Part shown: positions 1 through 18,700 of the stretch, piece by piece
Layout of the letters: each line of letters starts with the position of its first letter
Numbering within the stretch: position 1 is the first letter of the stretch
IMG/VR virus record: IMGVR_UViG_2558309035_000001
Origin: an uncultured virus (IMG/VR IMGVR_UViG_2558309035_000001)
Taxonomy: Duplodnaviria; Heunggongvirae; Uroviricota; Caudoviricetes
Reading direction: 5' to 3' (one strand)
Length of the DNA: 20,000 bases
Program-made: the position numbers and the translations under genes
Notes under the pieces: model-generated
Seen by the model: only the letters and a program-made list of their open reading frames with translations
Told to the model about the DNA's origin: nothing
Database searches by the model: none

Positions 1-1064
1 TTGAATTTTTTGGTAATGAACCTACCTTTGTACAATTGGTATAACAGACCATCTTGTCTGTTAATGAATTTACCGGGAGTAGTAGCATCTTCAGGAGTAG
101 CAACGTGAATACCTTTTACAGTAGAGATACGATCTTCAACACGCGCTTTTTTATCCAATTCAGATACCAAGAACATTACAAAAGACTCTTTGTAAGGCTG
201 AGAACCTTCTTTATTCCATTTGTTCAACCAGCTAGCTTCCATTTTCTGTAAGTAGTAACCAATGAACTCAATGTCTATTTGTACAGGGAATATTTGACCT
301 TCCTCTGCCTGGATCATTTGTTTGTTCTTCGGTAACCAAGGCAGTTTTCTAGCTTGGGTAATAGGTGCCGAAACTATGTTACCGTCACTTACCTTATCAT
401 CTACGTTAAAACGTTTGGGCCAAAACGATGGTAAACCAAAATTATCTCTATGTAGTGATTTAATAGTTTCAGGATTCTCTCTAAAATAATGATCCAAATC
501 ATCGTTCAATTTCTCAACGATCACTTTATCACTGAACTCCGTTGCATCGGTTACGATACCTGCAGCTCTTTGGTTCCATGGTCTACCCGCAAAAGCGTTG
601 TAAGCTTTGTTGTCTCCCCATAAATGGGTAGCACTGTGCATTGCTTTTTTACCTGGTGATGGAACTATAGCTAAGGGAGCATCAGGTTCAGATTCGTTTA
701 TCAACTTATCTATCTGTTGCTTCATTAACTTGTTACTGGCATTAAGCGCAGCAATTTGTCCGGGTACATCGCCTTCGGCGATTTTAGCATCCACTTCCTC
801 TTCAGTATGTCCGGCTTCTTGCAATGCCGTTTTCAATTCACTGTTTAAACGAGCCTCACGCTGGGCATCGGTTTCCATCTTTGCGAGATCACGATTAAAA
901 GCGTTTATCGCTTCATCTACATCACTCTCAGCCTCTAGCCGTTTCGCTAATTGCTGTTTTTGGTCATCTGTAAAATTGACCTTTCCCTCCAATACCGGAA
1001 TTTCTCCGATACCGAGGATCCCACAAACAATTGTGGCTAAATTTGCTGCTAATGTCCATTTCAT
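1..1064 (-). CDS. Probable major capsid protein with N-terminal scaffold-like region (3'-truncated by window edge; absent from ORF track)
   Basis: Manual translation from ATG at 1064 stays open to the edge: MKWTLAANLATIVCGILG...QREARLNSELKTALQEAG...IFPVQIDIEFIGYYLQKMEASWLNKWNKEGSQPYKESFV... Directly follows the S49 protease; charged helical N-terminal third. Capsid call rests mainly on position. Confidence 0.7.
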   Translation of the reverse strand, partial: MKWTLAANLATIVCGILGIGEIPVLEGKVNFTDDQKQQLAKRLEAESDVDEAINAFNRDLAKMETDAQREARLNSELKTALQEAGHTEEEVDAKIAEGDVPGQIAALNASNKLMKQQIDKLINESEPDAPLAIVPSPGKKAMHSATHLWGDNKAYNAFAGRPWNQRAAGIVTDATEFSDKVIVEKLNDDLDHYFRENPETIKSLHRDNFGLPSFWPKRFNVDDKVSDGNIVSAPITQARKLPWLPKNKQMIQAEEGQIFPVQIDIEFIGYYLQKMEASWLNKWNKEGSQPYKESFVMFLVSELDKKARVEDRISTVKGIHVATPEDATTPGKFINRQDGLLYQLYKGRFITKKF

Positions 1065-1084
1065 GGCTTTCTATAATTAAGGGT

Positions 1085-1966
1085 TTAAATAATTCTCTTT
1101 AATTCTGTTCGTAATTGTATTTTATCGATCATACCGATCGCTTCTTTTATACTACCAATGCCGTCTATCATTCCCAAGCCTAAAGAGGTATCGGCATCAT
1201 AAGTTTTACCATTGAGCACCCCCGGTTCTTCTTTAAGGTTAGGTCTACCGGCACGCACACCAGCTTGAAATTTTTGAGCAAGTGGAGATAGCTGCTCTGT
1301 CTTTATCATATCATATTTACCCTCTAGCGCCAAACGAAAAGCTTCGTTTTTGTTCGCACTTTCATCTGGATAAATTTCATGGAACACGATCCCCTGTTCT
1401 TTATAGTAAGGCTTCACATCTTGAAACGATGCTACTACGCCAACGCTACCAAAACGGGCGCTTACATCATTATCTGCCATTAAGTAATCGCAGACCGCAC
1501 ACGCCGTCCAATAGTGTAAGCTCATACAGGCATCTGCCAAACCGATAACGGGCTTGGTCTTCGTTTTCGCAAATTGCAAAAACGGACCTATAGCACTCAC
1601 CGCGCCCCCTGGTCCATCGATATTTAAAATACTTCCTTTAATATTGGGGTTGTTCTCTGCCATTTGCAGCGCCCCAACAATTTCATCTGCACCATAAGTA
1701 CACCAATCGCCATATTTAATGACCGCCCCCATCATATCTACCACGGCAACGGAACCTTCTGGGATATCCATATCTCCGTCATCATTGGCACGCACACGGT
1801 TACCGTTTGGGTCCATGATCTTTACCAGGGCAGTAGTACTGTTTTCAAATTCCACATTCTGCCCGCTGACGATTTTATGCACCGTTTCACCAAACCCCAA
1901 TAGGTAGCTTGGTTCCAATAACCAAACCCCTCTAATAACTTCCGATAATAGACGATTTACTTTCAC
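1085..1966 (-). CDS. S49 (SppA/ClpP-like) family peptidase, putative prohead maturation protease
   Basis: Motifs ILNIDGPGG, ACMSLHYW (catalytic Ser region), GSVGV and GMIDGIGS; GTG start; upstream of capsid-like gene. Confidence 0.9.
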   Translation of the reverse strand: MKVNRLLSEVIRGVWLLEPSYLLGFGETVHKIVSGQNVEFENSTTALVKIMDPNGNRVRANDDGDMDIPEGSVAVVDMMGAVIKYGDWCTYGADEIVGALQMAENNPNIKGSILNIDGPGGAVSAIGPFLQFAKTKTKPVIGLADACMSLHYWTACAVCDYLMADNDVSARFGSVGVVASFQDVKPYYKEQGIVFHEIYPDESANKNEAFRLALEGKYDMIKTEQLSPLAQKFQAGVRAGRPNLKEEPGVLNGKTYDADTSLGLGMIDGIGSIKEAIGMIDKIQLRTELKRII

Positions 1967-2015
1967 AACGTAAAAATGGGAAGAACTGAGCGTTAAGCGT
2001 GTAACACCAAAATCA

Positions 2016-2043
2016 CGTCATTGCGAGCGAAGCGCGGCAATCT
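2016..2043. repeat. REP-like palindromic element CGTCATTGCGAGCGAAGCGCGGCAATCT
   Basis: Resembles the widespread GTCATTGCGAG..GAAGC..GGCAATC intergenic palindrome family; ATTGC/GCAAT arms; flanked by a 9-bp inverted repeat at 1994-2002 and 2055-2063. Confidence 0.7.
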
Positions 2044-2060
2044 GTTTGTTAGGGACACGC

Positions 2061-2630
2061 TTAGTAATTGGTAACCCTATTACTCTTCTTATGCTGAAAC
2101 CTGGTCAGTTTATTTTCCTTACTGGTTTCACGGTAATAGAGAATACGCAACGCCTCGGTATCGAAACCAAGTTCTAGCAGGTCGTACTCATCCATAAAAT
2201 CGTTGATGACCTCTTTTACGCCAATATTGGTAAACTGCTTGCTACCGTTAACATAGAAGATGAATGCAGTACGGAAAATGTCTTCAAAGAAACTATTGAT
2301 ATAGGTGTTGTCAGATTCTGTAAACCTCAAAATTTCATGCACATCTTTACGACTTTTAAAAAGTGAGCTCTCGAACTTTTTACCGCCCTGCACCATGCGA
2401 ATACTGAACTGTATTCTATAATCGTACAAATGAGTACTGTCTTCGTACTTAGCATGAATAAGGTTGATAATACGGCAAATGCTACTGGTACGGTTCAACT
2501 TTATGGCCTTGGTCTGCAGACGTGGCATCATCACCACCTCCTCGGCTTTAAATTCATTGAAAAGAAATGGTACCAGGTGATCTCGCAACCTGAAGGGAAC
2601 TAACTGTATTTCTTTTCCTTTATACGTCAA
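2061..2630 (-). CDS. Hypothetical phage protein (189 aa), possibly nucleic-acid binding
   Basis: Long ORF with TTG start 3 nt after the spanin stop; basic C-terminus (EALRILYYR...KKSNR). Confidence 0.7.
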   Translation of the reverse strand: MTYKGKEIQLVPFRLRDHLVPFLFNEFKAEEVVMMPRLQTKAIKLNRTSSICRIINLIHAKYEDSTHLYDYRIQFSIRMVQGGKKFESSLFKSRKDVHEILRFTESDNTYINSFFEDIFRTAFIFYVNGSKQFTNIGVKEVINDFMDEYDLLELGFDTEALRILYYRETSKENKLTRFQHKKSNRVTNY

Positions 2631-2633
2631 ACG

Positions 2634-3095
2634 CTATTTTTTAGAACGGTTAATTAATAAGTACAAGCTAAAACATACCACTACCACCAAACCGCCCCAC
2701 AAATACGGATTCGGTTTTTTCGTCTCCACTTCAACAGCTTTCTTTTTGGATTTTAATTTGCTTTCAATCTTTTCTGCTTTAGCAGAAACAGACCGGTCAG
2801 TGCCCGTAGCCGAACTGTCTTTTTTTGAACTGTCAAATATTATTTTACTGTTGGTGAACTTGGTCGTGTTACCGGCACTGTCCGTAAAGGTGCTTTCCTT
2901 TGTTGGATCCACCGGTTCTAGCGTGGTCATGTTATACGCCTTGGTGTACCGTACATTCGAGGTAATGTCATTTTTAGTTTCAACACGAGTTTCTTTTTTT
3001 TCCTCCAGTTCAAGTTTTTCTAAATCCATCGCACGTTTACGGGTACCACAGCTCGTGCAGATGATAAAAACTAAAAACAGGATCCCGATTCTCAT
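2634..3095 (-). CDS. Putative unimolecular spanin (N-terminal lipoprotein, C-terminal TM helix)
   Basis: Lipoprotein signal MRIGILFLVFIICTS-C; C-terminal TM YLWGGLVVVVCFSLYLLI followed by NRSKK; close downstream of endolysin. Confidence 0.75.
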   Translation of the reverse strand: MRIGILFLVFIICTSCGTRKRAMDLEKLELEEKKETRVETKNDITSNVRYTKAYNMTTLEPVDPTKESTFTDSAGNTTKFTNSKIIFDSSKKDSSATGTDRSVSAKAEKIESKLKSKKKAVEVETKKPNPYLWGGLVVVVCFSLYLLINRSKK

Positions 3096-3235
3096 ACAAT
3101 GTCTATTAATATATACGTTGGAAACGCTTTATAAAAAGCAGATTCAACCTCTTTTATATTCGCACCTCTCATGTTCATTAAGCCTGGTCTGTAATCATCT
3201 TCTGATACCTTATATGTAATACAGTAATTATACAT
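3092..3235 (-). CDS. Small hypothetical protein (47 aa), not in ORF track
   Basis: MYNYCITYKVSEDDYRPGLMNMRGANIKEVESAFYKAFPTYILIDIV; stop overlaps the spanin start (ATGA); starts 1 nt after the upstream stop. Confidence 0.6.
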   Translation of the reverse strand: MYNYCITYKVSEDDYRPGLMNMRGANIKEVESAFYKAFPTYILIDIV

Positions 3236-3236
3236 T

Positions 3237-3359
3237 TTAACATGGTATATTCCTTAACAAATGTTCCTCACAGATAAAATCACCTGGTCGTATTTCGTAA
3301 GCTCCTTTAGTACCACAGATACCGCAATATTTTTGATGATAGAATAGAATGTCGTTCAT
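3237..3359 (-). CDS. Small putative zinc-binding protein (40 aa), not in ORF track
   Basis: MNDILFYHQKYCGICGTKGAYEIRPGDFICEEHLLRNIPC; CxxC...CxxH; start overlaps the endolysin stop (TAATG). Confidence 0.6.
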   Translation of the reverse strand: MNDILFYHQKYCGICGTKGAYEIRPGDFICEEHLLRNIPC

Positions 3360-3796
3360 TAAGCTTCTCTTTTTATGTGTGTTTGCCTTACCCATTTACT
3401 GTTGTAGACATAAGCATCATTCTGAGCGTTTTTATAATCTCCATGGATAAAACCATTATAGATTGCTAAACGTGTGTACCTAGTAACAGCAATTAAGGCT
3501 TCAAGTAATATTCCTTGATTTTCTTTAAAGTTATCGCAAGTAATATCACAAGCACCCAAAAAATTATAGGTATGTTCTGAATAACCGCTACGACCTTTTG
3601 ATTTTTCCCACTCAACACTTCTGTAGCTACTTTTAAGTGATACATAAATTTTAATATCACATTTGTACTTTTCTTTTATCCATTGCTCCACAAGTTTTAG
3701 TGGTGCCATATGAGCAACATAAGCAACGGTCTCCACTTTAGAAGGAAGACCATCGCCTTTAATGTCATAGCTGTTTATATTATGTATGCTGTTCAT
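3359..3796 (-). CDS. Peptidase M15A-like Zn peptidase, putative endolysin
   Basis: Motifs SSYRS, SEH(x6)D (SEHTYNFLGACD) and FIHGD; next to spanin. Confidence 0.8.
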   Translation of the reverse strand: MNSIHNINSYDIKGDGLPSKVETVAYVAHMAPLKLVEQWIKEKYKCDIKIYVSLKSSYRSVEWEKSKGRSGYSEHTYNFLGACDITCDNFKENQGILLEALIAVTRYTRLAIYNGFIHGDYKNAQNDAYVYNSKWVRQTHIKREA

Positions 3797-3813
3797 TATT
3801 TAGGTAAATTATT

Positions 3814-5529
3814 CTAGTACCCGTAAAATTTAACTTCTGCTACGTCTAAATCCGCAACCTCCCCATACATTCTAATATATCTATAAGGTGTTGTATCTGT
3901 GATTATTAATTTTGTATATTCTCCACTTACTGGATCTGTACCAGTCGATGGCCCTATATCTACAAACCCATCTGTAGTACTTGTATTACTCCCTTGTGGT
4001 GTAAGATTATGTGATCTATCACCAAAGCTAGTCCTGGGATATATATATACTTTTGTAATTACTTTTTCGTTACCAACACCTAAATCAAGCCCTATATATT
4101 TATTAATAGACCCTCCTGAACCTTCTGAACTAAAAAATGTAGATGTATTGTTATCAAAAGCCTTTTCATCAGAATAAACATCATTAGAACCTTCTAGATA
4201 ATATGGAGAACTAAAAGAAGTACCTGTTAATTCAGTACCTAACTGATCTATATTCACCCCTATAGCTTCCGCTACCTCAAGTGCTATAGTGTTTATTCCA
4301 GAAGCATTATAATGTACATTATCCGCTTGAGTAGTGGCTGCATCCGTATCTATTAGAACATTATATGGCTGTGCAGCTACAGTTTCCTGAATCGCTCGTA
4401 TAGTATTTCTTTGTAATTCTGTATATAAAGTCTGGTTATTGCTCATCCTACAAATAAGGAAAGGCATTTGAGGGTAATTGTAATAAGCTCGTTTTGCTGC
4501 AATAAAAGCTTCTAAATTAGCTTGGTAAGTATCTAAATTATCTTGTTGTATATCTTCCTCTCCTTGAATCCAAACATAATAAGCAGGGGCTAATTGACTA
4601 GGCATTAATGCTACCGCTGCATCATGATGACCATTACTATCTAAATATAAATCATCTACAGAATTAATATTCCAATCCGCAGCAGCTACAGTTTCAAGCC
4701 CTGTTGATCCCTCGGATGTTTTTATGAAGTAAAAATCTTCTCCAAATGTATCTACCAATACTTCTGCCAGCCTTAACTCTATACCGAAATTACCAAATGT
4801 ATTAGTACCGTTCCATCCTTTACTATTCGTATAGCTTAAAGTTTCTAGTGTCATAGATTCATAACTACCGTCTTTACCACCTATAGCCATATAAGCCCCA
4901 GTTATAGGTATAGAAAGTTCTCCAGGCAATCCAGAACTAGGAGCAAATCCGAATGCATTACTTTGACCGCCTATTTCTATTAGATTAGGGTTGTAAGCCA
5001 ATTCAACTACTACGTCTGGCTCATCAACTCCAGCACTTGTTACCCAATTAGTTCCATTATACCATATCGGATAACCTAATGTTGAATCAAAAAAACTTTC
5101 CCCCGTAGAAGCATTTTCTGGTCTTTCTGTACTTGCACCAGAACCAGGGGAAGACACCACATCCCCATCACTCTCACCCAAACTATCTTCTGCCCATTGC
5201 TCCAACTCGTTGTAATTGGAGAAGGTACTGCCGTAGGTGTTGAACAAGGGGTCTTTTGGGGAGAGCTTTATTTTACCCAGCTTAAAACCTTCTTTACTGA
5301 CCATGTACTCTTGCGTAGGTACCACAACAAAGGCAACACGGTTACCGCTTAGACGTTCCCAGGTCATATCTTGTGCCGGGTTTTGTTGGTCGGGACCGAA
5401 ATAGGTACGTATTCTAAAATTCTTGGCATCGCCAATGACTCCGATTTCTATAACGGCATCTTTACTCAGCTCTTGTGCGGTCGCCAAACAACCGAACATT
5501 AATACCAGGGCAACTACTATCTTTTTCAT
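3814..5529 (-). CDS. Signal-peptide protein: fibre-type linker + SGNH/CE6 (SASA) sialate O-acetylesterase-like domain + C-terminal F5/8-type (discoidin-like) domain
   Basis: Signal MKKIVVALVLMFGCLATA-Q; RP...G..FFDSTLGYPIWYNGTNW linker; GQSNA, WIQGE and DNVH motifs; KAFDNNTSTF, IGLDLG, YRYIR and VAEVKFYG. Confidence 0.85.
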   Translation of the reverse strand: MKKIVVALVLMFGCLATAQELSKDAVIEIGVIGDAKNFRIRTYFGPDQQNPAQDMTWERLSGNRVAFVVVPTQEYMVSKEGFKLGKIKLSPKDPLFNTYGSTFSNYNELEQWAEDSLGESDGDVVSSPGSGASTERPENASTGESFFDSTLGYPIWYNGTNWVTSAGVDEPDVVVELAYNPNLIEIGGQSNAFGFAPSSGLPGELSIPITGAYMAIGGKDGSYESMTLETLSYTNSKGWNGTNTFGNFGIELRLAEVLVDTFGEDFYFIKTSEGSTGLETVAAADWNINSVDDLYLDSNGHHDAAVALMPSQLAPAYYVWIQGEEDIQQDNLDTYQANLEAFIAAKRAYYNYPQMPFLICRMSNNQTLYTELQRNTIRAIQETVAAQPYNVLIDTDAATTQADNVHYNASGINTIALEVAEAIGVNIDQLGTELTGTSFSSPYYLEGSNDVYSDEKAFDNNTSTFFSSEGSGGSINKYIGLDLGVGNEKVITKVYIYPRTSFGDRSHNLTPQGSNTSTTDGFVDIGPSTGTDPVSGEYTKLIITDTTPYRYIRMYGEVADLDVAEVKFYGY

Positions 5530-5546
5530 TTTAATCTACTTTTGTT

Positions 5547-5575
5547 ACTGGGCAGGGAGTCGAACCCCACCCAGT
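5547..5575 (-). other. tRNA T-loop-like minihelix hairpin (not a full tRNA)
   Basis: Minus strand ACTGGGTGGGG-TTCGACT-CCCTGCCCAGT: 11-bp stem with 2 G-U pairs and a 7-nt T-loop, in a 51-nt intergenic gap. Confidence 0.65.
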
Positions 5576-5580
5576 TAGTT

Positions 5581-5907
5581 TTATACTTCACTTGTTACCG
5601 ATCGGTACAGTTGGTTTAAGAATACCGAACCAAGTCCTGTTAAGAACATGACAATAAAATTGCCGTCGCTCGCCAACGTACCTAAGTAGGCAGATGCCGT
5701 GGCTATCAAAGGCACCACAATCAACGTGGTCGTGCCGGTAACGAACGGGGCTATCTTTTTTACGAGCCACGTTACGCCCAATGTAATAAGTGGCATAAGC
5801 CATGTTAATACCGATGTGGCATTATCGAATTCAATGCTTTCTTCTTGCGCCAATAACGCCATAGGTGCCAATAGCACCACTACTAATAATTTTAAACTGT
5901 TTTTCAT
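5581..5907 (-). CDS. Small membrane protein, holin candidate (signal-like N-terminus plus about 3 TM)
   Basis: Hydrophobic segments VLTWLMPLITLGVTWLV, TTLIVVPLIATASAYL and FIVMFLTGLGSVFL; lysis-region context. Confidence 0.6.
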   Translation of the reverse strand: MKNSLKLLVVVLLAPMALLAQEESIEFDNATSVLTWLMPLITLGVTWLVKKIAPFVTGTTTLIVVPLIATASAYLGTLASDGNFIVMFLTGLGSVFLNQLYRSVTSEV

Positions 5908-5918
5908 GATACTTCTAT

Positions 5919-6608
5919 TTAATTAATAATTATCGTGTCTTGCACCGCATTTGCACTATCGGTTACAATCTCTATGACTTCCATTTTCCCTTGAGCATCA
6001 ATAACCTTTACCAACAACTCTAAAGGAGCACTAAAACCGAACATTCTGTTCTTATAATATTTGCTACGCCATTTATGGCTATACAATAGCGTTTTACTGC
6101 TGTCTGGCCACATCCACGGTTCTACGTCATCTTCAGGTTCTCCGCTGCTTAATACCTTACGGTCCATCGCCTCAAAAACCACAGCCACTTCATAGGGCAC
6201 TAGATCAAAATTGGTTTTACCTAAACTCTTCACTCTGTCGAGTCCGAATACTTCCTCGTACTTTTCGTTCATGCCCGTAATGCGAATACTATCGCCACGT
6301 TGAGTTTTCTCGTACCAGGCAATATCGAGCTCATCCATCTCAATGTTTCTACCGATATTGGCGGTGACCAAAAAAGCATTGGTAACCGCTAGTTGTTCGC
6401 TCTTGGTACGCCACTTATCGCGCTTACCGGTCATTACCCACAACTGTACGGTAGTCGTAGCCAATGGCACCAGAACCAACCAACCTTTATTCTTTTTTAT
6501 GAACGTATGTAGCCTGGTCTTTATAAACCGGCGCTCTTTTGATCGCAACCACCACCTGTATTTGATCCACAGTCTAAGCAGTAGTTTTTTGGGGGAATTC
6601 TCAGGCAT
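5919..6608 (-). CDS. Membrane-anchored standalone PAS-domain protein
   Basis: Basic N-terminus, hydrophobic WLVLVPLATTTVQLWV, then PAS_4-like MNEKYEEVFGLDRVKSLGKTNFDLVPYEVAVVFEAMDRKVLSSGEP. Start moved to ATG 6608 (MPENSP) because a small ORF occupies 6616-6693. Confidence 0.75.
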   Translation of the reverse strand: MPENSPKKLLLRLWIKYRWWLRSKERRFIKTRLHTFIKKNKGWLVLVPLATTTVQLWVMTGKRDKWRTKSEQLAVTNAFLVTANIGRNIEMDELDIAWYEKTQRGDSIRITGMNEKYEEVFGLDRVKSLGKTNFDLVPYEVAVVFEAMDRKVLSSGEPEDDVEPWMWPDSSKTLLYSHKWRSKYYKNRMFGFSAPLELLVKVIDAQGKMEVIEIVTDSANAVQDTIIIN

Positions 6609-6615
6609 GCGCTTA

Positions 6616-6693
6616 TTATGCTTTATCGGCATGATCAGAGAGCAATATTACTATTGCCACCAACACACTAACTATTGTTGTAACCAATATCAT
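6616..6693 (-). CDS. Single-TM micropeptide (25 aa), not in ORF track
   Basis: MILVTTIVSVLVAIVILLSDHADKA; starts 1 nt after the upstream stop and fills the gap. Confidence 0.5.
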   Translation of the reverse strand: MILVTTIVSVLVAIVILLSDHADKA

Positions 6694-6694
6694 C

Positions 6695-7051
6695 TTAATT
6701 CAATTTTTGCAATAACCGTATCAATTTCGCTACAATAAAACCACCACCGAGTCCGCTAATAGCAGCCAAAAAATGATCAATAGGTGTTTGAATATCAACA
6801 GGAATACTAACGAAGTAATCAGCAAAAGGTAGTCCAACCTCTACTATAAATGATAGTACTAGATAACCGCTTAAAATCTGATATAAATAGTTTTTCCAAG
6901 TACCTTTAAAGTAATTATCTACACCGTATAAATTCTTTTGAGTTATACCCGTACCTATAGCCATTATAGTTACAAGTATACCACCAGTACATACCCATAT
7001 CATAGACCAGTCTAATTCCTGATACCAAAACTTTTCGACAATTTCTCCCAT
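6695..7051 (-). CDS. Membrane protein with about 3 TM, holin candidate
   Basis: Three hydrophobic segments and a basic C-terminus (AKLIRLLQKLN). Confidence 0.6.
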   Translation of the reverse strand: MGEIVEKFWYQELDWSMIWVCTGGILVTIMAIGTGITQKNLYGVDNYFKGTWKNYLYQILSGYLVLSFIVEVGLPFADYFVSIPVDIQTPIDHFLAAISGLGGGFIVAKLIRLLQKLN

Positions 7052-7053
7052 AA

Positions 7054-7140
7054 TTATTTACTATTTCTATATTGATACCATAACTTACCCAACACTATAA
7101 AAGCTATATACACTATTACGAATGTTAGATAATTGGTCAT
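7054..7140 (-). CDS. Single-TM micropeptide (28 aa), not in ORF track
   Basis: MTNYLTFVIVYIAFIVLGKLWYQYRNSK; fills the gap with 2-nt spacers on both sides. Confidence 0.55.
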   Translation of the reverse strand: MTNYLTFVIVYIAFIVLGKLWYQYRNSK

Positions 7141-7142
7141 TT

Positions 7143-8036
7143 TTAATTGTTCCTTTTCTTGTTCAGCATCAATTGTTGCTCTATAGGTTTAAATTCTAAA
7201 GGTGCAGGTGTTGGAACGGTAATATCACCGTCAATTGATAGCCCCAAAGGACTCACATCTTCATATTCCCCACCACTACCTTTCCATACTTTAAATGTAT
7301 CATAGTGCGCTTCGCCTGTTGAATTACTAGGGCCGTAGTATAACCCTAACTTTACATATCCCGCAGGGTCTTTTTGGCTTCCGTCATGAGCCTTGTTATA
7401 AGTAGTAGTACCTACATGATTTAAAACTACATCACCATTACACCATATTCTTACAAAACCGTTATCAGGATCTAATTTAAAGTTGATAACAATATCATAC
7501 CACTCACCAAGCTCATAAGGGTATTCATAAACTATACTTCCGCTTATTGCTCCACTAGGAAACGTTGTATTTTTTGCGCTTGCATTTGTATTCCACAAAA
7601 AACCAAATTTGTTTCCAGATAAATTTCTTAATGTATATGGATTAGTACCGCTTGTGTTCGTGTAATTATGAGTGTGTGGTCTGAATTGAGTAAGTATAGC
7701 ATAACCACTAACAGGTTCTACAACTCTAATAGAGTAACCTATCCAATATTCTGTGTACCAATCATAAAAACCATTTGCAGCATTTGGGGCGTCATTATAC
7801 TGTCTTGTAATCTCTGATCTAATACCCCCTAAATCATTTGTCAACCTAACATAACCTATGCCCTGTCTTGCTGTTCCATCTGTAATAATACCACTATCAA
7901 AAGTACCTATATCATTACGCCAATCGGTAGAACCGTTACTACCTAATTCACTAGAGCTATCAAACGGACTATCTAGTATAATAGAGCCTTGTGCAGCTAT
8001 TAAAAAAGGAAATAATAAGAATAATATGTATTTCAT
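7143..8036 (-). CDS. Signal-peptide polysaccharide lyase-like beta-jelly-roll protein (heparin lyase I/Polysacc_lyase-like)
   Basis: Signal MKYILFLLFPFLIAA-Q; motifs RSEI, YWIGYSIRV, ILTQF, GEWYDIVI, GFVRIWCNG and YVKLGLY. Confidence 0.75.
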   Translation of the reverse strand: MKYILFLLFPFLIAAQGSIILDSPFDSSSELGSNGSTDWRNDIGTFDSGIITDGTARQGIGYVRLTNDLGGIRSEITRQYNDAPNAANGFYDWYTEYWIGYSIRVVEPVSGYAILTQFRPHTHNYTNTSGTNPYTLRNLSGNKFGFLWNTNASAKNTTFPSGAISGSIVYEYPYELGEWYDIVINFKLDPDNGFVRIWCNGDVVLNHVGTTTYNKAHDGSQKDPAGYVKLGLYYGPSNSTGEAHYDTFKVWKGSGGEYEDVSPLGLSIDGDITVPTPAPLEFKPIEQQLMLNKKRNN

Positions 8037-9869
8037 TTACAACGCTTTTAAACTAATTTTAATCTGCATTATATCACCTATACTACCAGTGGTATTATTA
8101 GGGTATGCGTCAAGTTGAAAACCTGTAGCTGTACTTTCAAATACATGAGATAACAGAACCCATTCGCTAGAATTAAGATTTAACCATTGAAAACCATCAG
8201 CTCCAACATTTAATTTGATTCTTCCATCATTACCTTGAATCATTCTGTAATAAACATCAACCCTGTAATCTGTACTGTTCAAAATAGTTACACTTGGTCT
8301 TGCACGACCACCACTAGCATTACTTTCTATTTGATATACGTAGCTCCAATCATCAAAACCAGTAACCACCACACTAGATGTAGTTGCGTTAATTGTAGTT
8401 ATTTCACTTGGTGAGGTAGCTGCATTGGTTTCATTAGGTGGAAAAGCTGCTGCACCTATATTCCATAATTCTGGATTACTGTTGTTTTGATTTGTATAAG
8501 GGAAATTTGAACCATTTGAAGCTAAACCACTTGTTTCGATCCAAAAGGTAGTAGCATCTAATTTAATAACGTTTGCAGTTTCATAAGGACTTAGTTCTAT
8601 TTGTGAATCAACATCTAAAGCTGTTTTAAACCCATCTTCATTAAGGGCATAACCTGAAAAGTCATAACCACTTTCTGGTTTTAAAGTAACAGCACCGTTA
8701 CCGCTATTGTTAAAATCTGCCCATGTATTTAATTGTGTGACAGCAGAACCAAAAGTCAACTCACCTACATCCGCTTTGTAATTATTTACCTTTTTTCCAC
8801 TAGATATAAAGTTTGAATTATTTATTGTTATATCACCTGTTGTAAGGTTGTTTCTTACTGATTGTATTGAACTTGCTGAACCTGCTATTTCATCAATAGC
8901 ATCTTGTACGTCCGTTGCTGTTAATCCGCTTGTTGTTGGGTCGTAGGTTACTTCGGATGCGTCATTATTACTAATAGCTGTATCAACATAGAGTTTAGTC
9001 GCTAAATGCAAGTCATGCTCTATAATTCCATCATGAGCAATAAAAGCTCTGTTAATAGATGAACCAGCAGAACTATTCCTAAATGCTAAATCACCTGAAT
9101 AAGTACTAGCTGTTTGCTCTGTAATATCCCATGTTCCAGTATCAGAATTTTTATCTGACAAATTTAATATTCCGACATTCAATACATCTTCCCCACCGGC
9201 ATCATTACCTTCTGTTAATACTTCCGGTAATGTTTGATCGTCTGTGCCACCGCCTGAACCTAATGCATCTACATAACCCTTAGTAGCTGCGTCCGTATCG
9301 TTTACAGGTGCAGCTAAGTTTTTAATAGCATTGTTCTGCATATCCAAAGGATCATCAACATCTATCTCTGTTGATAATGCATGCAAGTTTCCTGTATAGA
9401 TATAGCTAGAGAAAATTTGAGAAAATGAAGCTCCTGAACTACCTAAGTCTATTGAGCCACTACTTTGAGGTAAAAGATCACCTGTAAGCCTGCGGCTGCC
9501 ATCTTTTAATAAGTCGTCGTTATTATCAATATCCAAATCGGAGTACAAAGCAGACAACCAAGAGGCCGCCCTGGCATCGGTATGATATTGTGTATGGTCA
9601 TCATCGGTTAAACCAGATAATGCACCATGGTCGGTAACTCCACCGCCAACAACATCCATCAAATCCACAAACTCGGTACCGTTATAATACCAAAGCGATT
9701 TAGTTGTACTATTACCTACCAACAACCCCTCACGCGGATTACCGATACCGTTCAACACCGTCGATGTTTTTGTATCGAGTAGCAGTCCATCTGCAGGACC
9801 AATGACATCTACCTGGGCAATACCGAATGCCGATACCAATAGGGCTATTACTATACTTAACTTTTTCAT
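8037..9869 (-). CDS. Signal-peptide fibre/adhesin-like protein
   Basis: Signal MKKLSIVIALLVSAFGIA-Q; fibre-type motifs WYYNGTEF, DHGALSGLTDDDHTQY, IKNLAAPVNDTDAATKGYVD, LATKLYVD and ATDVQDAIDEI; beta-rich C-terminus. Confidence 0.7.
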   Translation of the reverse strand: MKKLSIVIALLVSAFGIAQVDVIGPADGLLLDTKTSTVLNGIGNPREGLLVGNSTTKSLWYYNGTEFVDLMDVVGGGVTDHGALSGLTDDDHTQYHTDARAASWLSALYSDLDIDNNDDLLKDGSRRLTGDLLPQSSGSIDLGSSGASFSQIFSSYIYTGNLHALSTEIDVDDPLDMQNNAIKNLAAPVNDTDAATKGYVDALGSGGGTDDQTLPEVLTEGNDAGGEDVLNVGILNLSDKNSDTGTWDITEQTASTYSGDLAFRNSSAGSSINRAFIAHDGIIEHDLHLATKLYVDTAISNNDASEVTYDPTTSGLTATDVQDAIDEIAGSASSIQSVRNNLTTGDITINNSNFISSGKKVNNYKADVGELTFGSAVTQLNTWADFNNSGNGAVTLKPESGYDFSGYALNEDGFKTALDVDSQIELSPYETANVIKLDATTFWIETSGLASNGSNFPYTNQNNSNPELWNIGAAAFPPNETNAATSPSEITTINATTSSVVVTGFDDWSYVYQIESNASGGRARPSVTILNSTDYRVDVYYRMIQGNDGRIKLNVGADGFQWLNLNSSEWVLLSHVFESTATGFQLDAYPNNTTGSIGDIMQIKISLKAL

Positions 9870-10102: not shown

Positions 10103-10473
10103 GTTAATCGTATTTTACCGTTCGTTTTAAAGAAGACATCTTTATCTTCTAGATCCGCAACGCCCGTAAAAGCATTGTTCATGAGTATACCCTCTATCCA
10201 TTCTTCTTTAGTAGCATCATCTACCCAGGCCTCAATTTTATCGTTCTGCTGAAATGCAGCAATATCCGTATTGCCGTTACCTTTACGTATATGCCATACC
10301 TTACCGTTGCTATCGGCTAAATACATACTACGCCCGTGCAGCTCTATAAGCGCCAACCGCATTTCATTGAAGTCCGTCGCCAACCATTTGCTTTTCAACG
10401 GTACATTGGCAAGCTCCAGCAAACGTGCCGGCGAATCTTCTTTCTCGATTATGGTCAATGGAAATACACTCAT
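10099..10473 (-). CDS. Hypothetical phage protein (124 aa)
   Basis: ORF coupled to both neighbours. Confidence 0.7.
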   Translation of the reverse strand: MSVFPLTIIEKEDSPARLLELANVPLKSKWLATDFNEMRLALIELHGRSMYLADSNGKVWHIRKGNGNTDIAAFQQNDKIEAWVDDATKEEWIEGILMNNAFTGVADLEDKDVFFKTNGKIRLT

Positions 10474-10474
10474 G

Positions 10475-10978
10475 CTAATAGGGTTCTAAAAATGATACGG
10501 GAAACTCATACACGAAACCATAGGCATTCGTATTCTCAAAAAAACCGATGGGAAAAATACTGGTGGACCTGAATTCAACCTCTGTCGTTTTCTCGTTGCT
10601 GGAGACCGTTACTTTCGGACTCGCATTCTGAAAAAAGTCGTTTCTACCGATGATGACCGTTTGATCATTACTGAACTTCATACTCAAAAACTTCACTTTA
10701 CGAAGCTCTTCTAACCGAAGACTACGCTGCTCATCGTTACTGGGGAACTTTATAGTAACTCGCTGGGCATATAGAATTCCGTTTTTTGTTTCTGAAGTCG
10801 TTTCTTGAAATCGGGCGCTGCCGTTACTATAGTAGACGGATTTAAAGTTACCCTGACTGATGTTGGTATTATAGAACGGCTGATTGTCTAGCGTGCCGGA
10901 CGCAAATTCATTACCCGAAACATCCAGTTGGATTCCGCATATATGAGGATTCGATAAAACACGTTCTGTAATCAGCAT
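10475..10978 (-). CDS. Hypothetical phage protein, first gene of the late block, possibly structural
   Basis: 167 aa with a beta-strand-rich pattern; follows the long non-coding region. Confidence 0.7.
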   Translation of the reverse strand: MLITERVLSNPHICGIQLDVSGNEFASGTLDNQPFYNTNISQGNFKSVYYSNGSARFQETTSETKNGILYAQRVTIKFPSNDEQRSLRLEELRKVKFLSMKFSNDQTVIIGRNDFFQNASPKVTVSSNEKTTEVEFRSTSIFPIGFFENTNAYGFVYEFPVSFLEPY

Positions 10979-11039
10979 ATCTGTCTACTAAGATATTGCA
11001 AAATAGACAAATAAGCATATAATATGGTGTAACATGAAG

Positions 11040-11059
11040 CGAAAAAGTAGACTTTTTCG
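11040..11059. promoter_or_regulatory. Operator-like palindrome CGAAAAAGT-AG-ACTTTTTCG upstream of the late block
   Basis: Perfect 9-bp inverted repeat about 60 nt upstream of the ATG at 10978. Confidence 0.4.
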
Positions 11060-11201
11060 AATATTGTTGAACCATTATCCGGCAATCGCCCAAAATTAGA
11101 CTTAAAATTTACCAAACGTTAAACAAAATGAAAATCATCTCGCTCTGGTCGAACAGTTTTTCTAGTAGATTTCTGTAGTCTCTGTTAAAGTGCTTTTTTT
11201 T

Positions 11202-11432
11202 TGTAACTCTGTAACTTTGTAACCTTTTTGTATAAGTTGTTGATTAACAACTATTTAAATGGAGATTTTTGAAGAGTGGTTTTTGTAACCGAGGCATATT
11301 CAAGTTTGTAGAAACTGTAACCTTTAGTAAAGGTTACAGTTTTTTTGTAACCAAGTTACAATTTTAATAAACCTTTTGTATCCGTTCAGCCCAATGACTA
11401 CAAGCTTTTTCGTAAGTGGTTACAAAGTTACA
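11202..11432. repeat. TGTAAC/GTTACA iteron-like array with a 31-bp palindrome and an IHF-like site
   Basis: GTAAC at 11203, 11211, 11219, 11285, 11317 and 11347; GTTAC at 11333, 11355, 11419 and 11427; palindrome 11312-11342; AATCAACAACTTA on the minus strand at 11233-11245. Confidence 0.85.
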
Positions 11433-11576
11433 ATTATTTTCTACTAGAGCTAAGAGGGGGTTTGGGGGAGATACTGACACAATGGCGTGTGTGCCGTTTT
11501 GTCGCATTTGTTTAATGTTGTAACAATTATACGGAAGTATCTTAGTCTACTGCACCAGGCGTTCGCTACCGGGCAT

Positions 11577-11601
11577 AAAAAAACCTCCAGTATTAGAGGT
11601 T
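11577..11601 (-). terminator. Probable intrinsic terminator ending the early operon
   Basis: Minus strand AACCTCTA-ATAC-TGGAGGTT followed by a T run. Confidence 0.6.
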
Positions 11602-11613
11602 CTATTTGAAAAG

Positions 11614-11693
11614 AAACGATGCGATAACAGTTGCTATAACCAAAAGCTCGTGCCTCGCTACTGGTCATAGCTTGGTGTTGTAAAACATATTGC
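11614..11693 (-). other. attC-like imperfect hairpin directly after the 90-aa gene
   Basis: Minus strand TTTTACAAC-accaa-GCTATGACCA-gt-AGC-gaggcacga-GCT-tt-TGGTTATAGC-aact-GTTATCG. Confidence 0.6.
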
Positions 11694-11966
11694 TTAGTTC
11701 TTTGATATTTCTTGTTCGTCGTAATCCATCCCCATAAATTCAAAAGCAACTAAGTCAGTATCAATATAATTTTGTGTGTAATTATTTTCAAGTATGTATT
11801 TGTGGTGTTCAGATAAGACTAAGGATAAGTCTACTTTGTCGCAAGACGATTTTACATTACTATGTAAAATTAATTTCTTGGCATGGTACGCTTCTGCAAA
11901 GGCAAATATTTCTTTGCGTGTGTCAATATCTAAATCTGATTTTTGATAAAACTCTTGTGCTTTCAT
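11694..11966 (-). CDS. Hypothetical protein (90 aa), apparently chimeric across an attC-like junction
   Basis: ATG in an A-rich context; the junction falls at ...KLILHS/NVKS... Confidence 0.75.
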   Translation of the reverse strand: MKAQEFYQKSDLDIDTRKEIFAFAEAYHAKKLILHSNVKSSCDKVDLSLVLSEHHKYILENNYTQNYIDTDLVAFEFMGMDYDEQEISKN

Positions 11967-12049
11967 TATTGTTTAATTTTAAGTTAATATTTACTAAGGC
12001 TTGTTATTGCTATTGAAACTAATCTTACATTTTACGTTATCCATCATTT
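11841..12049 (-). other. Long-loop attC-like element whose loop contains a gene start
   Basis: GGATAAC overlaps the upstream stop; 16-bp arms at 12015-12030 and 11862-11877 match 14/16 as an inverted repeat; the expected GTT reads AAT. Confidence 0.55.
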
Positions 12050-12276
12050 GAGCTTGCTACATTCTGAACTCTATATACTTTACATGGGTACGTAGCTTTT
12101 TTCTCAGCAGCGGAGAAATCAGTACCACATTCAAAAACATCTCCGTTTTTGTCTAGCCAAATCCATTGTTCGCCACCTCTAATTTTATCTGGTAGTATAC
12201 CAGGCACTCTGCTAATCCATTGTAATTTGCTACTGAGTTCAAAAAGAAACTCCGCATTCACCATTATTTTTTCCAT
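12037..12276 (-). CDS. Hypothetical phage protein (79 aa)
   Basis: ORF in the packed early cluster. Confidence 0.7.
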   Translation of the reverse strand: MEKIMVNAEFLFELSSKLQWISRVPGILPDKIRGGEQWIWLDKNGDVFECGTDFSAAEKKATYPCKVYRVQNVASSNDG

Positions 12277-12455
12277 TGCTGATTGTTTACTATTAATTGA
12301 TCATTGCATTTACTTTTATCATGCAGCGCCTTGCAGTTCCAGCAGACGAGGGCACCGGTGACGGCATCTCTAAAACCATTGAACAATACATCGTTCTTTG
12401 GTTTGGATGCTGTACCGCAATAGCTGCACGTTTTTATATTACTGAAGAGATTCAT
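12264..12455 (-). CDS. Small zinc-ribbon protein
   Basis: CSYC...CWNC; ATGA overlap with the upstream gene. Confidence 0.7.
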   Translation of the reverse strand: MNLFSNIKTCSYCGTASKPKNDVLFNGFRDAVTGALVCWNCKALHDKSKCNDQLIVNNQQWKK

Positions 12456-12790
12456 TTCATTTCATCCATTTCAATCTCACTAAAATCAATCCCTTCAACA
12501 CTGATTAGTTTAATTCCATAACTTCCATCTAACTCAGGAAATCCTTCCGCATCTTCAAAATCAGACAACACACCTCTTAAATTATGAACATTAGTGGTCG
12601 CAAAACACATTGCTGTTCTACAATACAACCTACCCAGTTCATCATAAATGTTTTTTTCCAAGTCCCAATCCCAAGAGAAGAATTCTAATAACATTTTCGC
12701 ATCACCTTCAGATAATTTCTCAATATCAATTTCTAAATGGGCAGAAGCATCTCCCCAGTTATATTCGTACTTATATGTTTTAATTTTCAT
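12452..12790 (-). CDS. DUF2528-like phage protein
   Basis: Pattern YxYxW...EID...FFSW...EGFPELDGSYGIKL, recalled as DUF2528-like; not verified by search. Confidence 0.6.
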   Translation of the reverse strand: MKIKTYKYEYNWGDASAHLEIDIEKLSEGDAKMLLEFFSWDWDLEKNIYDELGRLYCRTAMCFATTNVHNLRGVLSDFEDAEGFPELDGSYGIKLISVEGIDFSEIEMDEMK

Positions 12791-12824
12791 TTTCTAATTT
12801 ATTTTTTTTACGGTCAACCAACAA

Positions 12825-13328
12825 CTAATAACGAACATCTGACCAATGAATAATCCTTCCTTTAAAATCTGTATTGAACCAAGTAAAGAATGCCTCTACG
12901 GTGGGGAAGCCATCGTTGAGCGCTAGTTCTGTAACGTCTGTGATCCATGCGCCATCTATAAACACCAATGGTCTTTCCAATTTACATTTGTCCTGGTCTA
13001 TCCATTGTATCTCCAGCTCCTGGATCGCGGTCACTTTTTTAACCGGTGCAAAACGCATCATACTTATTTTGCGAACATCTATATAAAAGTGAATATCCAA
13101 TCCCACTTTCCAACGGTGAGCTTTGTCTTCGCGAATGGTATGCGGTTTACCGAACTCTAATTTTTTATACATAGGCATATCAAACCTATTACAAAATAAA
13201 GCCTGTTGAAATCCGGTATCTATAGGCTCATCACCTAGACCTTTCCATAATTTCTCTACAAAATACGTTGGCTCACCTGCCAACGCTCCCATTTTCTTGG
13301 GCCACTTTGTGCTAATACCTAAGATCAT
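12825..13328 (-). CDS. ASCH/PUA-like domain protein
   Basis: GKPHTIR, WKVG, LALNDGF..VEAFFTWF and IIHW motifs. Confidence 0.75.
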   Translation of the reverse strand: MILGISTKWPKKMGALAGEPTYFVEKLWKGLGDEPIDTGFQQALFCNRFDMPMYKKLEFGKPHTIREDKAHRWKVGLDIHFYIDVRKISMMRFAPVKKVTAIQELEIQWIDQDKCKLERPLVFIDGAWITDVTELALNDGFPTVEAFFTWFNTDFKGRIIHWSDVRY

Positions 13329-13830
13329 AATTAGTTAATTTGTTAAACCTTTTCAAAAACATAGCCTTCGCTTTTTCTGGAGACCAATAACACATTAAAT
13401 CTTTTTTCATAACAAAAGCATTCCATTCCGAACTTAATAATAGTGCATCGGCATCTTTAATGTACATACTATACGGATATTTAATACCAAATTTTTTAGC
13501 AATTACTACAGATAGATTATGTTCCAGCTCCTTATAGCAAGGCATTAATTTTTTAAAAGGACTAGGCATATCACCTAAGTAAGCCTCGCTTGCATCATGA
13601 AGTAGACCTGCTAATTCATCATTCGTTCCGGCTAAACAATCAGAAACATAGAATGAATGTTGCGCTACGCTATAAAAACCTTCTAAATGTCCACCAAACC
13701 TAGGTGTATATGCTAGTGCATGAGCAATATCTTCGATACAGATAGAATCTGGATCCAGTTTTCTAATATCAAAGCATTTTCCCGTATAAGTTCTAATACT
13801 ATTCTCTGTATATTCTTGATCTAATATCAT
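13312..13830 (-). CDS. HD-domain phosphohydrolase (YfbR-like 5'-deoxynucleotidase)
   Basis: IEDIAHAL, RFGGH, YSVAQHS and LLHDASEAYLGD. Confidence 0.92.
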   Translation of the reverse strand: MILDQEYTENSIRTYTGKCFDIRKLDPDSICIEDIAHALAYTPRFGGHLEGFYSVAQHSFYVSDCLAGTNDELAGLLHDASEAYLGDMPSPFKKLMPCYKELEHNLSVVIAKKFGIKYPYSMYIKDADALLLSSEWNAFVMKKDLMCYWSPEKAKAMFLKRFNKLTNYDLRY

Positions 13831-15502: not shown

Positions 15503-15550
15503 AAAAAAACTTTTTAATGCTCTCGCGTTATACTTAAATAACCTTTCACG

Positions 15551-15740
15551 TTTCAACACTTCAACATCATTGATAATCAGATACTTACGCTTAAAAAGGT
15601 GTTGAAAGTGTTTGAAACACAAAACAGCTTCAAACACTTTCAAACAACTTCAACACCTTTTCAACACCTTACTTTTATAGTTAATCATTTGATTTTTAGT
15701 TTATTAAGTATTATTTATTTAGGTGTTGAAACGTTTGAAG
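15551..15740. repeat. TTCAA(A)C iteron-like array downstream of the primase-helicase, putative replication origin
   Basis: TTCAAC/TTCAAAC at 15552, 15560, 15629, 15639, 15649 and 15660; inverted copies near 15601, 15611, 15725 and 15734; IHF-like sites at 15575-15587 (+) and 15682-15694 (-); AT-rich core. Confidence 0.8.
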
Positions 15741-15741
15741 T

Positions 15742-18700
15742 TCAAAAGGGTAAATCTTTCTGCTCCGTATTATTTATTTTTTCTTCAGGGGTTGCAGGGG
15801 ATGGAAACAAAGAGTTCTCATTCCGCTGAAAATCAACCGCAAACTTTATCTCATCTTTAATAGGTATCTCTTGTATCTGCACCAAATAGGCAGATGTAGC
15901 CTTAGATTCTTTACCAGGCGCAAAACGGACCCCTGCGATAGTGTCTATAAATGATTTATCTTTTTTCAATGCATCCATCATTACTCCCTTAGCCGGGGCG
16001 CTATCTCTGTACTGCGTATACCATTGCCGTTGTACCCGATTGTAACAGCTGGTAAAATTGAAATACAGTCTATCACCGTCAAGTTTTAAATCACGGCCGT
16101 CTCTAATTTGGTCTGCCACCGTACCTCGCATACTCGCCAAGAAACAATCCCACCAACGATTGATTACACTAGCGCTGTTCATTTTGCTCATTTGACTATC
16201 GATAGTCTTATCGAAATGGGACATCATATCTTCATGGCTAAAAGGAAAGCTTACCTCGGGTATATTCTGAAACATCTGGTAAAATGTTCCCAGTACCGAA
16301 AGATTTTGAACCATTCTACTCTGTGCCTCTGGTCTACGTTGTGCTAGAGTGCTCTTAAATTCTCTATACCTACCCTTGAAATTATTTTTTACGGATGCCC
16401 TATGGTGCAAGAACATATCCGTATAGCCACTGATACCTTTTTTTACAATATCACTAAGCTTCTCGTACTCTTTTGTGTCCTCGTCATCAAAAACGGTCTT
16501 ATCCATAAACTCCCAAATAAATCTTGAAATCAAAGCTTCTTGATCGGGAGCATAATTACCGGTCATAATTACACTTGAAAGAATGGGAATGCTCTCTGTA
16601 CCCACATGACTATCTATATTTCCTCTTTTATAGCCACGTCTATCCCATAATCCTTTAAGAACTCCATCTAATTTTGGATCACCGTTCTTATATTCACTTA
16701 ATTGAGAAATTAAATTACAGAACTGGGCAAATTCTCGAACCTGCGCTTTAATAGTACTTACGCCACCCTCTAAGTTAATAGCGGTCTGTGGTCTTCCTGA
16801 GAAACTCTGACATACATCCGCTAATTGATCTTTACCTGAAGAAGCAGGTCCAAATAAGAACAGCATAGGGAAAGAATTTAGCTCAGAAACAACAATATCT
16901 TGAAATATAGAAGCTATGGAGAACAGGATACCCATCATACCATGACTTCGATGAACTTTAATGAGCTGATTGGTAAAGTTTTGAAAGTTTATAGTGGGTG
17001 GCAGGGAGACCACTCTTTTTTGAGCCTCGAACTTATAGATGTTCGTACTGTATATTTTATTGGCACTAGGCACATAATACATAACGTTTTTATGTTCAAA
17101 TACTCCGTTATCATCTATAGTGATATCATTTTCGCTAGGCACTGTTACTTTGTTGTTCCATACCCAGAACCCTTCAGGTTGCCAACCAAGCACTTCAATC
17201 TTACGACCGGTACCCATTGAATCGAACAGAAACGTTTTAAGAAGTTCGTGTTCTTTACGACCACCTTTCCATCTAAAGTTGCCGTGCGCCGTTACAGCGT
17301 TTTCAAATGACATGGGGGTGTTCATTTCAGCGCTCTGCATATCAAAAATGCGTTCAAGTTTATGCACGTTCTTAATACGTACCAGCTTCATTGGGTACTT
17401 TTCATCTTGCATATGTTGAATAATCTCAATGTCGAAATTGCTGTAACTTTTAAAAGTAAAAGGGGGTTCAGCGCCTTGCTGTACATAAATCTGATGATTG
17501 GCCATGAACATTTGATACTTTTCAATGATCGGCCTTATATTTTCCAATGGCTCTTTTACACTTTCAGGAAGGCGGTAGAAATCTTCTGAAGAAAACTCTT
17601 GTATTCGTTTGTTCTGATTTCCCTTGATATCTTTTATAAGTGATAGTTCTTTAAACCACTTATTTATTTCGGTTGGTTTTACTGAGCTTTCTTTAGTTAA
17701 CCAGTCCTTATAAATACTGCGGATGCCTTCGTCTGAAATATCACTTACCAGTTGAACTAATTCTTTAGTTGACTGCGCAATTGCAACGGCATCTTTTGCC
17801 TTAAAGCGATGTGCCATCAAGAATTTAAATCCATCTTGACGATAGTTTATATTGTCACTTAGATTGCTTAAATCGTATTTACGTGCAGCAACTTTATGAT
17901 AGCGAATAAAATCGTCTGGGTCCAACTGTGGTTGGTTCACTACAAGTTGTACTCGAAACCCTTCCTTAATAAATTCAGGTATATACCTGAGCATTGCTTT
18001 TTTACCAGGTCCGTCTGGGTCAAAATTAAAAATGATACGATCGCATAATTTTTTTAGCAAACGGATTTGACCGATTGCAATAGCTGTGCCACACCCAGCA
18101 ATGGTATTGGGTATACCGTTGGTTTGCCAGGCAATTACATCATTATACCCTTCGACCAACCAGGCTTCGCCCTTTTTAACTATCGCTTCACGAGCTTTGT
18201 CCAGTCCGTACCAAAAAATTCCTTTTTTGTATAGCTCACTATCTGCAGAATTTATCCATTTAGCGTACTTTTTATTGTCTACCAATGCCCTACCTGCGAT
18301 ACCTACCGGTAGTAATGAAGTGCCTTTACGCTCAACCAAAGGATAAATAACTCTGTTATGCCATTTATCACCCGTATCCGATATTAAGCCCAATGTAATG
18401 GCATCTGCCTTTCTACCGTTGGCTACACATAAATCATAAAGAAACTTGCCACCAGGTGCATATCCAATCCTATAGTCTTCGACAATATCATTAGAATACT
18501 CTCGTTTACCGAATACCTCCAATTTAGCAGGGTGGTCTTCAGGTAGTTCTTGAAATGCTTGTTCAAATTTTCTTAAACTACTTTCTAATAAAGGGCGAAG
18601 GGCTTCCTTTTTTTCTTGCTTTTCATGATAAGCCCTGGTGGCCTTATTATCTTCATATTGTAACTCTACATTATATTTTTTCGCCAACCACTCAATCGCT

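Follow-up and report, generated by a model that had tools for sequence, protein, structure and literature searches.

A chimeric small gene in a probable integron-like cassette of an uncultured provirus

Organization of the locus

The locus described here lies in a 20,000-nucleotide stretch of viral DNA (the window), which is contained in a provirus record of 67,115 bases (IMG/VR IMGVR_UViG_2558309035_000001). It closes a run of small early genes on the minus strand, and the places where relatives of its sites occur point to a Bacteroidota host. Read along the gene strand, the end of a 79-aa gene is followed by an AAC triplet, a long hairpin (H1), a core triplet, a cargo segment, a second AAC, a short hairpin (H2), GTT and 15 complementary nucleotides (Table 1).

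Table 1. Features of the cassette locus and the observations that define them
Feature	Position	Strand	Evidence
Cassette: leader hairpin H1 plus cargo, ending in AAC; 359 bp	11677..12035	-	Contigs of runs X9 and X10
Left outer end of the resident site, where the 79-aa gene also ends; AAC 12038-12036 is the upstream crossover	12036..12049	-	Breaks in X3, X6, X9 and X10; pairs with 11628-11614
H1 interior, 177 nt: arms 12030-12015 and 11877-11862, AT-rich loop of 137 nt, ATG at 11966, 36 codons	11859..12035	-	Sequence; same leader in P0007
Inner core, predicted to be translated as a codon; AAT, against GTT (Val) in the family	11856..11858	-	Sequence; GTT in L007
Cargo: 54 codons, stop at 11696-11694; its two ends are mutually complementary; AAC 11679-11677 is the downstream crossover	11677..11858	-	L007, P0004, P0005, X14
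Chimeric ORF of 90 aa (P0001), no assigned function	11694..11966	-	ORF; Pfam, PHROG, Atlas
Short hairpin H2, 54 nt, AAC..GTT, without a gene start codon; resident site, retained in the empty allele	11626..11679	-	Folding; X9
Right outer end of the resident site; can pair with 12049-12036	11614..11628	-	Pairing test
Second AAC (11601-11599), opening a terminator-like hairpin	11582..11601	-	X3 and X6 rejoin here
79-aa gene, fixed flank in the window	12037..12276	-	Alleles; homologues in L008-L012

No Pfam family was found for P0001, PHROG 5693 matched it weakly and in the C-terminal half only, and its Atlas model has a pLDDT of 0.45; a search of the ESM Atlas gave no usable match. No convincing promoter was seen in the leader. 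The hairpin at the downstream edge of the locus is probably a terminator; a simple terminator scan listed none at this position. In the arrays L008 and L011, homologues of the 79-aa gene are GTT..AAC-bounded cargo; those of L009, L010 and L012 are not enclosed by sites of this kind. An 8.3-kb terminal repeat starts at the gene's stop codon; this was taken as a record boundary, and its reading as a crossover was dropped. The repeat is direct (1-8299 and 58809-67115 of the record). Its two copies agree at 99.9%, and the eight single-base losses that distinguish them interrupt ORFs of the first copy. The copies enclose an island that has an integrase of its own, and the repeat is either a duplication or an assembly product.

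Two other parts of the window stand out. Positions 11100-11450 are non-coding, carry many GTTACA/TGTAAC repeats and are conserved in relatives, so that an origin or a packaging-related site may lie here; a perfect 15-nt palindrome is found at 11312-11342. At 15540-15742, a long inverted repeat separates the primase gene from the next gene.

The mobile unit and the chimeric protein

Eight of the 20 listed runs were compared with the window (X1, X2, X3, X6, X9, X10, X14 and X15). In X9, a contig joins position 12036 to 11676, leaving out 359 bases; three letters at the joint fit either side, and the short side comprises 56 letters. The contig of X10 shares both flanks and has 425 different letters in place of the 359 bases. 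Those of X3 and X6 leave the window at 12035 for leader-like sequence and rejoin it at 11601 after a cargo-like end, and that of X14 holds leader and cargo pieces and passes into other sequence after 11677. X1 yielded chance pieces only, and X1, X2 and X15 gave no allele information. The contigs of X3, X6, X9 and X10 all stop matching at 12035/12036: the empty and the alternative allele come from two studies, two more studies show the break at 12035, and a fifth study shows one at 11677.

In close relatives, then, the 359-bp unit is absent or replaced exactly at AAC. Since the empty allele retains H2 and has neither leader nor cargo, H2 is the resident site, and leader and cargo form a unit that runs from AAC to AAC. 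Empty and alternative-cargo alleles had been anticipated in the original prediction, which was made from the window sequence without database searches; both exist, though the empty allele retains the downstream hairpin and it is the leader that is lost together with the cargo. As in attC sites, the crossover lies inside the AAC/GTT triplet of one strand, both at the X9 joint and in six of six isolates of the phage Freya discussed below. Since X3 and X6 rejoin behind a cargo-like end, the AAC at 11601 appears to serve as a terminal or secondary site. Relatives also replace or lack a 112-aa gene between the ATG at 12455 and 12814/12837; as 12455 shows no hairpin, gene-boundary mosaicism of the ordinary type also takes place next to the cassette.

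On alignment, the predicted 90-aa protein is a chimera that breaks at LHS/NVKS, as had been proposed; its homologues share single halves and are not alike over their full length. P0004 and P0005 match it from NVKS/VVKS onward only, their N-terminal halves being unrelated. In P0007, this leader (25 of 34 residues, 74% over residues 1-34) is followed by an unrelated C-terminal half, and P0008 and P0009 have the leader peptide in common with P0001, without the joint motif. The DNA of L007 matches 11856-11677 at 86%, with no match past either end; there the shared cargo is preceded by a different leader hairpin, and the GTT core is intact. The cargo is thus found behind three leaders and the leader before two cargoes. 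Because each homologue shares a single half, a rarer exchange at the inner joint took place in addition to the movement of the whole unit. The loop of the upstream hairpin was correctly predicted to supply the start of the gene, with the ATG in the loop and 36 codons before the core.

P0007-P0009 are known as proteins only, since a region search with residues 1-40 found P0001 alone; alignment of the leader gave no confirmed locus and no longer protein. A scan of viral contigs with the C-terminal half returned two weak matches of 38%, which were set aside, and P0006, a repeat protein, was discarded as a chance match. No match to 10400-13400 was found in the phage collection, where protein matches stayed at chance level. 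Among genome samples, short matches were obtained in 6 of 401, and the one match in 251 was the known homologue of the 79-aa gene.

Hairpins and crossover points

The four end sequences on which the original prediction was built all lie where it had placed them, and their crosswise pairing exceeds both controls. Of 20,000 random AAC/GTT flank pairs from the genome, 45 equalled the pairing of the upstream left with the downstream right end, as did 12 of 5,000 shuffles; for the cargo end with the cargo start, the counts are 22 of 20,000 and 0 of 5,000, respectively, and both 'self' pairings score 0. The cassette start thus pairs with its own inverse core, which is the swapped-end arrangement of attC cassettes.

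Two attC-like AAC..GTT hairpins had been described, a description that fits H2. Of the 16 positions in the arms of H1, 14 are paired and two form G.T pairs, but H1 ends in AAC..AAT, whereas H2 ends in AAC..GTT (compared with RYYYAAC/GTTRRRY in attC) and GTT is present in the homologous cargo. In run X2, possibly the source sample itself, one contig spans 11735-12055 and shows 0 differences, AAT included. Folding of the whole of H1 is at shuffle level (z +0.24, +0.41), and H2 alone folds marginally (z -1.74, -2.15); no extrahelical base was seen in the arms of either. The modelled empty allele reaches -15.3 kcal/mol (z -3.57), compared with -9.1 kcal/mol (z -0.92) for the filled allele as found, and the modelled circle junction of the 359-bp cassette gives only z -1.58. 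A covariance model built from 12 short sites of other phages missed H2 and found nothing in 60 recombinase loci. Rfam searches of the window and related loci gave no relevant family, and scans of viral contigs for the junction, H2 and the terminator gave no match. A copy of H2 that is 80% alike lies inside an array of the Winogradskyella phage Peternella_1 (L006:4001-4055); its outer AAC is replaced by AAT, which makes it another apparently frozen site.

The crossover point could be followed in cultured phages. Isolates 1, 2, 5, 6, 8 and 9 of the Polaribacter phage Freya (3, 4 and 7 were left out) were compared with Freya_10, and all six differ from it in the array by AAC-bounded losses, gains or replacements only. 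Of the junctions, three fall inside a record, and three coincide with the record origin and were closed by coordinates. The otherwise identical isolates (L016, L056, L088 and L090-L095) differ by 0.3-4.9 kb of cassettes right before an intact 271-aa recombinase, and Freya_6 carries a cassette that is absent from Freya_10. Across 42,900 nt, the four complete genomes examined agree at 99.998-100%. The main text of the paper on the isolation of Freya does not use the words 'cassette', 'integron' or 'deletion' (PMC8776804). Between P12002L and P12002S, nine match ends, read by eye, fall at AAC and none at GTT.

A wider comparison covered 86 units from about 37 stretches, several of the loci being near-duplicates, and considered pairs with one part at least 85% alike. 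Eleven pairs are wholly alike, seven fit a crossover at AAC (four or five events) and none fits one at GTT. In 90 pairs, a near-identical 116-nt hairpin is combined with cargo and upstream DNA that are both unrelated; the listed pairs all belong to one 116-nt family. A homogeneous hairpin of 121-122 nt recurs at about position 2501 of L057-L081, in many unrelated viral contigs with different cargoes, and resembles the sites of sedentary integrons in this respect. Danklef_1 and Freya_10 differ with three ends at AAC, two on the GTT side and two elsewhere; the divergence begins right after GTT, and neither GTT-side break falls within an ORF. A GTT-side chimera was not seen between near-identical genomes.

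With respect to polarity, 89 sites have 174 G.T against 3 C.A pairs on the gene strand, and the gene-strand duplex is the more stable one in 81 of 81. The detector placed 88 sites on gene strands and 14 on other strands, counts that are biased because it rewards G.T. The gene strand, which opens with the crossover AAC and holds the G.T pairs, likely plays the part of the attC 'bottom' strand. An ORF runs through the core in 19 of 25 long hairpins, in all of which GTT is a codon in a single frame, in two frames in the mid-size ones (8 and 10 of 52) and in 0 of 12 short ones; the arms are related, and these frame counts are not independent. In attC cassettes the ORF is on the top strand, upstream of attC and without overlap, whereas here it is on the AAC-first strand and starts in the loop.

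Candidate recombinase and proposed mechanism

The record encodes two integrases, which score 31.7 and 48.4 bits on TIGR02249 (cut-off 265) and were rejected as the cassette enzyme, being arm-binding types of phages or islands. No IntI was found in the 67,115 bases, so that the locus has attC-like sites without a nearby IntI, as CALINs and SALINs do; the earlier statement that no integrase is visible in the window holds for IntI in the whole record. A better candidate is the 271-aa tyrosine recombinase of Freya, which has the IntI N-terminal Pfam domain, scores 96.5 bits against the cut-off of 265 and has no IntI insertion; a complete integron, with an IntI above the cut-off and with the insertion beside the array, is thus not what is seen. 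The IntI insertion is regarded as necessary for recombination at hairpin sites, which speaks against the short enzyme. In Freya, the last site of the array is a non-hairpin AAC site that precedes the recombinase by about 50 bases, and this layout, with the site at a fixed distance, recurs in L008, L051 and Ingeline_1; in the window, the AAC at 11601 has no recombinase behind it. The short recombinase of Danklef is annotated in pieces, and the array genes of Danklef_1 and Danklef_5 are alike in size, the only property compared. The short recombinase was not found in the record of the window (best tblastn E 2e-5), and PF13495 occurs in only 3 of 35 records searched, in 0 of 7 near-complete virus records and not in the record itself.

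Homologues of the short enzyme are present in 131 of 401 sampled genomes of the phylum, and an enzyme above the TIGR02249 cut-off in 90 of 301. Within 1.5 kb, a strong hairpin was detected at 9 of the 30 top chromosomal loci of the short enzyme, compared with 1 of 30 IntI loci. Among ten chromosomal loci picked for a hairpin, the intervening gene is on the other strand in nine, which is the classical polarity; hence phages appear to carry an inverted, self-starting form of an integron-like system. In L098, L105, L108, L111, L114, L115, L122 and L123, a chromosomal short recombinase is followed by cassette-like genes on the same strand and an AAC..GTT hairpin of 120-190 nt. One chromosomal cargo may be a toxin-antitoxin pair, by its resemblance to one, and three loci share a nucleotidyltransferase-like gene that we take to be possibly a resistance gene. 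By this association, the short enzyme likely moves the cassettes.

We consider it probable that the locus carries an integron-like cassette which was moved at AAC by a tyrosine recombinase acting in trans, that an exchange at the inner GTT made the chimera and that the change to AAT then froze this copy. The recombinase, likely short and IntI-related, would insert the cassette via folded single strands, with the gene strand in the role of the attC 'bottom' strand. Compared with a classical cassette, the gene would lie backwards, start in its own hairpin and read through the inner GTT, so that the cassette would bring its own start. Routine crossovers at AAC would move whole genes; as such movement carries the gene intact, the fusion requires a second, rarer exchange at the inner joint, which may proceed by recombination of the other strand and would place a new cargo behind a leader, always in the same reading frame. 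The core probably changed from GTT to AAT afterwards. With this core, the AAC of H1 cannot pair fully and the copy is likely inactive: in the accessible text of PMC2811028, a non-complementary core, with the changed base on the cleaved side, lowered IntI1 recombination from 2.2e-3 to 6e-6. The paired outer ends of the resident site may represent the junction left by a circularized 79-aa cassette that opened elsewhere, an idea suggested by the self-complementary cargo formed by its homologue in L008 and L011.

The most serious alternative, although we regard it as unlikely, accepts that cassettes move and attributes the chimeras to cassette formation or to phage single-strand annealing between short similar arms. 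The 90 pairs look as if one hairpin had been added to many cargoes, chimeras on the GTT side are absent among near-identical genomes, and Freya encodes an annotated RecT. On the other hand, the breaks are base-exact at the core (L007 from 11856, Danklef/Freya right after GTT). It was also reported that integrons are cut at the AAC of the bottom strand, the one richer in G.T, and that, with IntI1, either strand of a site devoid of extrahelical bases can recombine (PMC5027507, as far as its text is accessible). It is less probable still that a canonical host IntI moves the cassettes and the short enzyme is merely a neighbour. IntI is frequent in the phylum, most arrays lack the short enzyme, and P12002L_attC2 was recombined by IntI1 according to the accessible text of PMC9892861; against this stand the hairpin frequencies given above, which come from our own detector, the constant spacing, in four phage loci, between the short enzyme and a similar non-hairpin AAC site in front of it, and the confinement of the Freya variation to its flank.

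Two further explanations are very improbable. Hairpins that regulate at the RNA level, with ordinary mosaicism swapping DNA at their ends without a dedicated recombinase, would account for the swaps at 12455, a plain gene boundary, and for a G.T bias that fits RNA and single-stranded DNA equally, but not for three-base precision at an invariant AAC in five runs and six isolates, for an attI-like terminal site beside a recombinase or for the lack of an Rfam family. Finally, the originally proposed entry of a circle of about 230 bp, made of cargo and downstream hairpin, into an upstream solo site at G/TT, with the fusion made in one step, matches the cross-complementary ends and the protein break at the inner joint, but the actual unit is 359 bp long and crosses over in the gene-strand AAC, where near relatives all break; the empty allele keeps H2 and lacks H1, the upstream hairpin joined to the downstream end folds at z -0.01 against -3.57 for that allele, and the same cargo precedes other sequence in L007 and X14.

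The probable cassette system shares with integrons the imperfect AAC/GTT hairpin, the crossover in the AAC of one strand and, by counts biased in their favour, G.T pairs on it, the mutually complementary cassette ends and, in related arrays, a non-hairpin terminal site by a tyrosine recombinase. It differs in its ORF, which occupies the AAC-first strand, begins within the hairpin and is predicted to be translated through the core, in its outer complementarity of 15-18 nt and hairpins that reach 180-270 nt, and in the associated enzyme, which has about 270 aa and no IntI insertion. Phage CALINs were described by Qi et al. 2023 (PMC9892861), whose P12002L_attC1 is a short hairpin of this AAC/GTT family with the gene strand as 'bottom', in phage arrays without integrase. 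Two P12002L sites are reported in the accessible text of that paper, where leaders, in-frame fusion and the short recombinase are not mentioned; recombination of P12002L_attC1 by IntI1 was not verified, and attC2 is read here as the terminal site of the array on the opposite strand. SALINs (bioRxiv 10.1101/2022.09.11.507474) likewise have isolated cassettes far from an integrase, at GWT-type genomic attG sites, and insertion of this kind, as outlined in the main text of the preprint, could explain the one-cassette array in a prophage and the use of 11601. The receiving site here is instead a hairpin with complementary outer ends, and the main text of the preprint makes no mention of Bacteroidota. 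The Flavo-1 RNA motif (RF01705), also a repeated Bacteroidetes hairpin, was set aside, having a different sequence and no Rfam match in the window or related loci. In the literature searched, which includes few subscription journals, no description was found of a leader-in-hairpin design or of the short enzyme.

The accessible text on IntegronFinder 2.0 reports few integrons in Bacteroidetes (PMC9024848); despite this rarity, the AAC/GTT hairpin family is common in Bacteroidota phages and adjoins the short recombinase in Bacteroidota genomes. Somewhat tentatively, a second integron lineage may exist in Bacteroidota, based on a recombinase of about 270 aa without the IntI insertion and inverted in phages, where one strand would shuffle self-starting genes and the other would fuse leaders and cargoes in frame. 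Under that reading, the cultured Freya phages would now carry out the whole-gene reaction, and phages would gain programmed combinatorial small proteins. If the short enzyme does recombine hairpins without the insertion, this bears on the evolution of single-strand recombination and reveals a cassette system currently missed by detectors. The window offers a natural series of empty, filled, alternative and apparently frozen states, and the cultured Freya isolates make both the enzyme and the crossover point directly testable. Genes that start in their own recombination site may explain many small phage proteins that share L-x-I-x-x-V-V joints between unrelated halves, and such a system would enable phages to exchange entire genes frequently and to recombine protein halves on rarer occasions.
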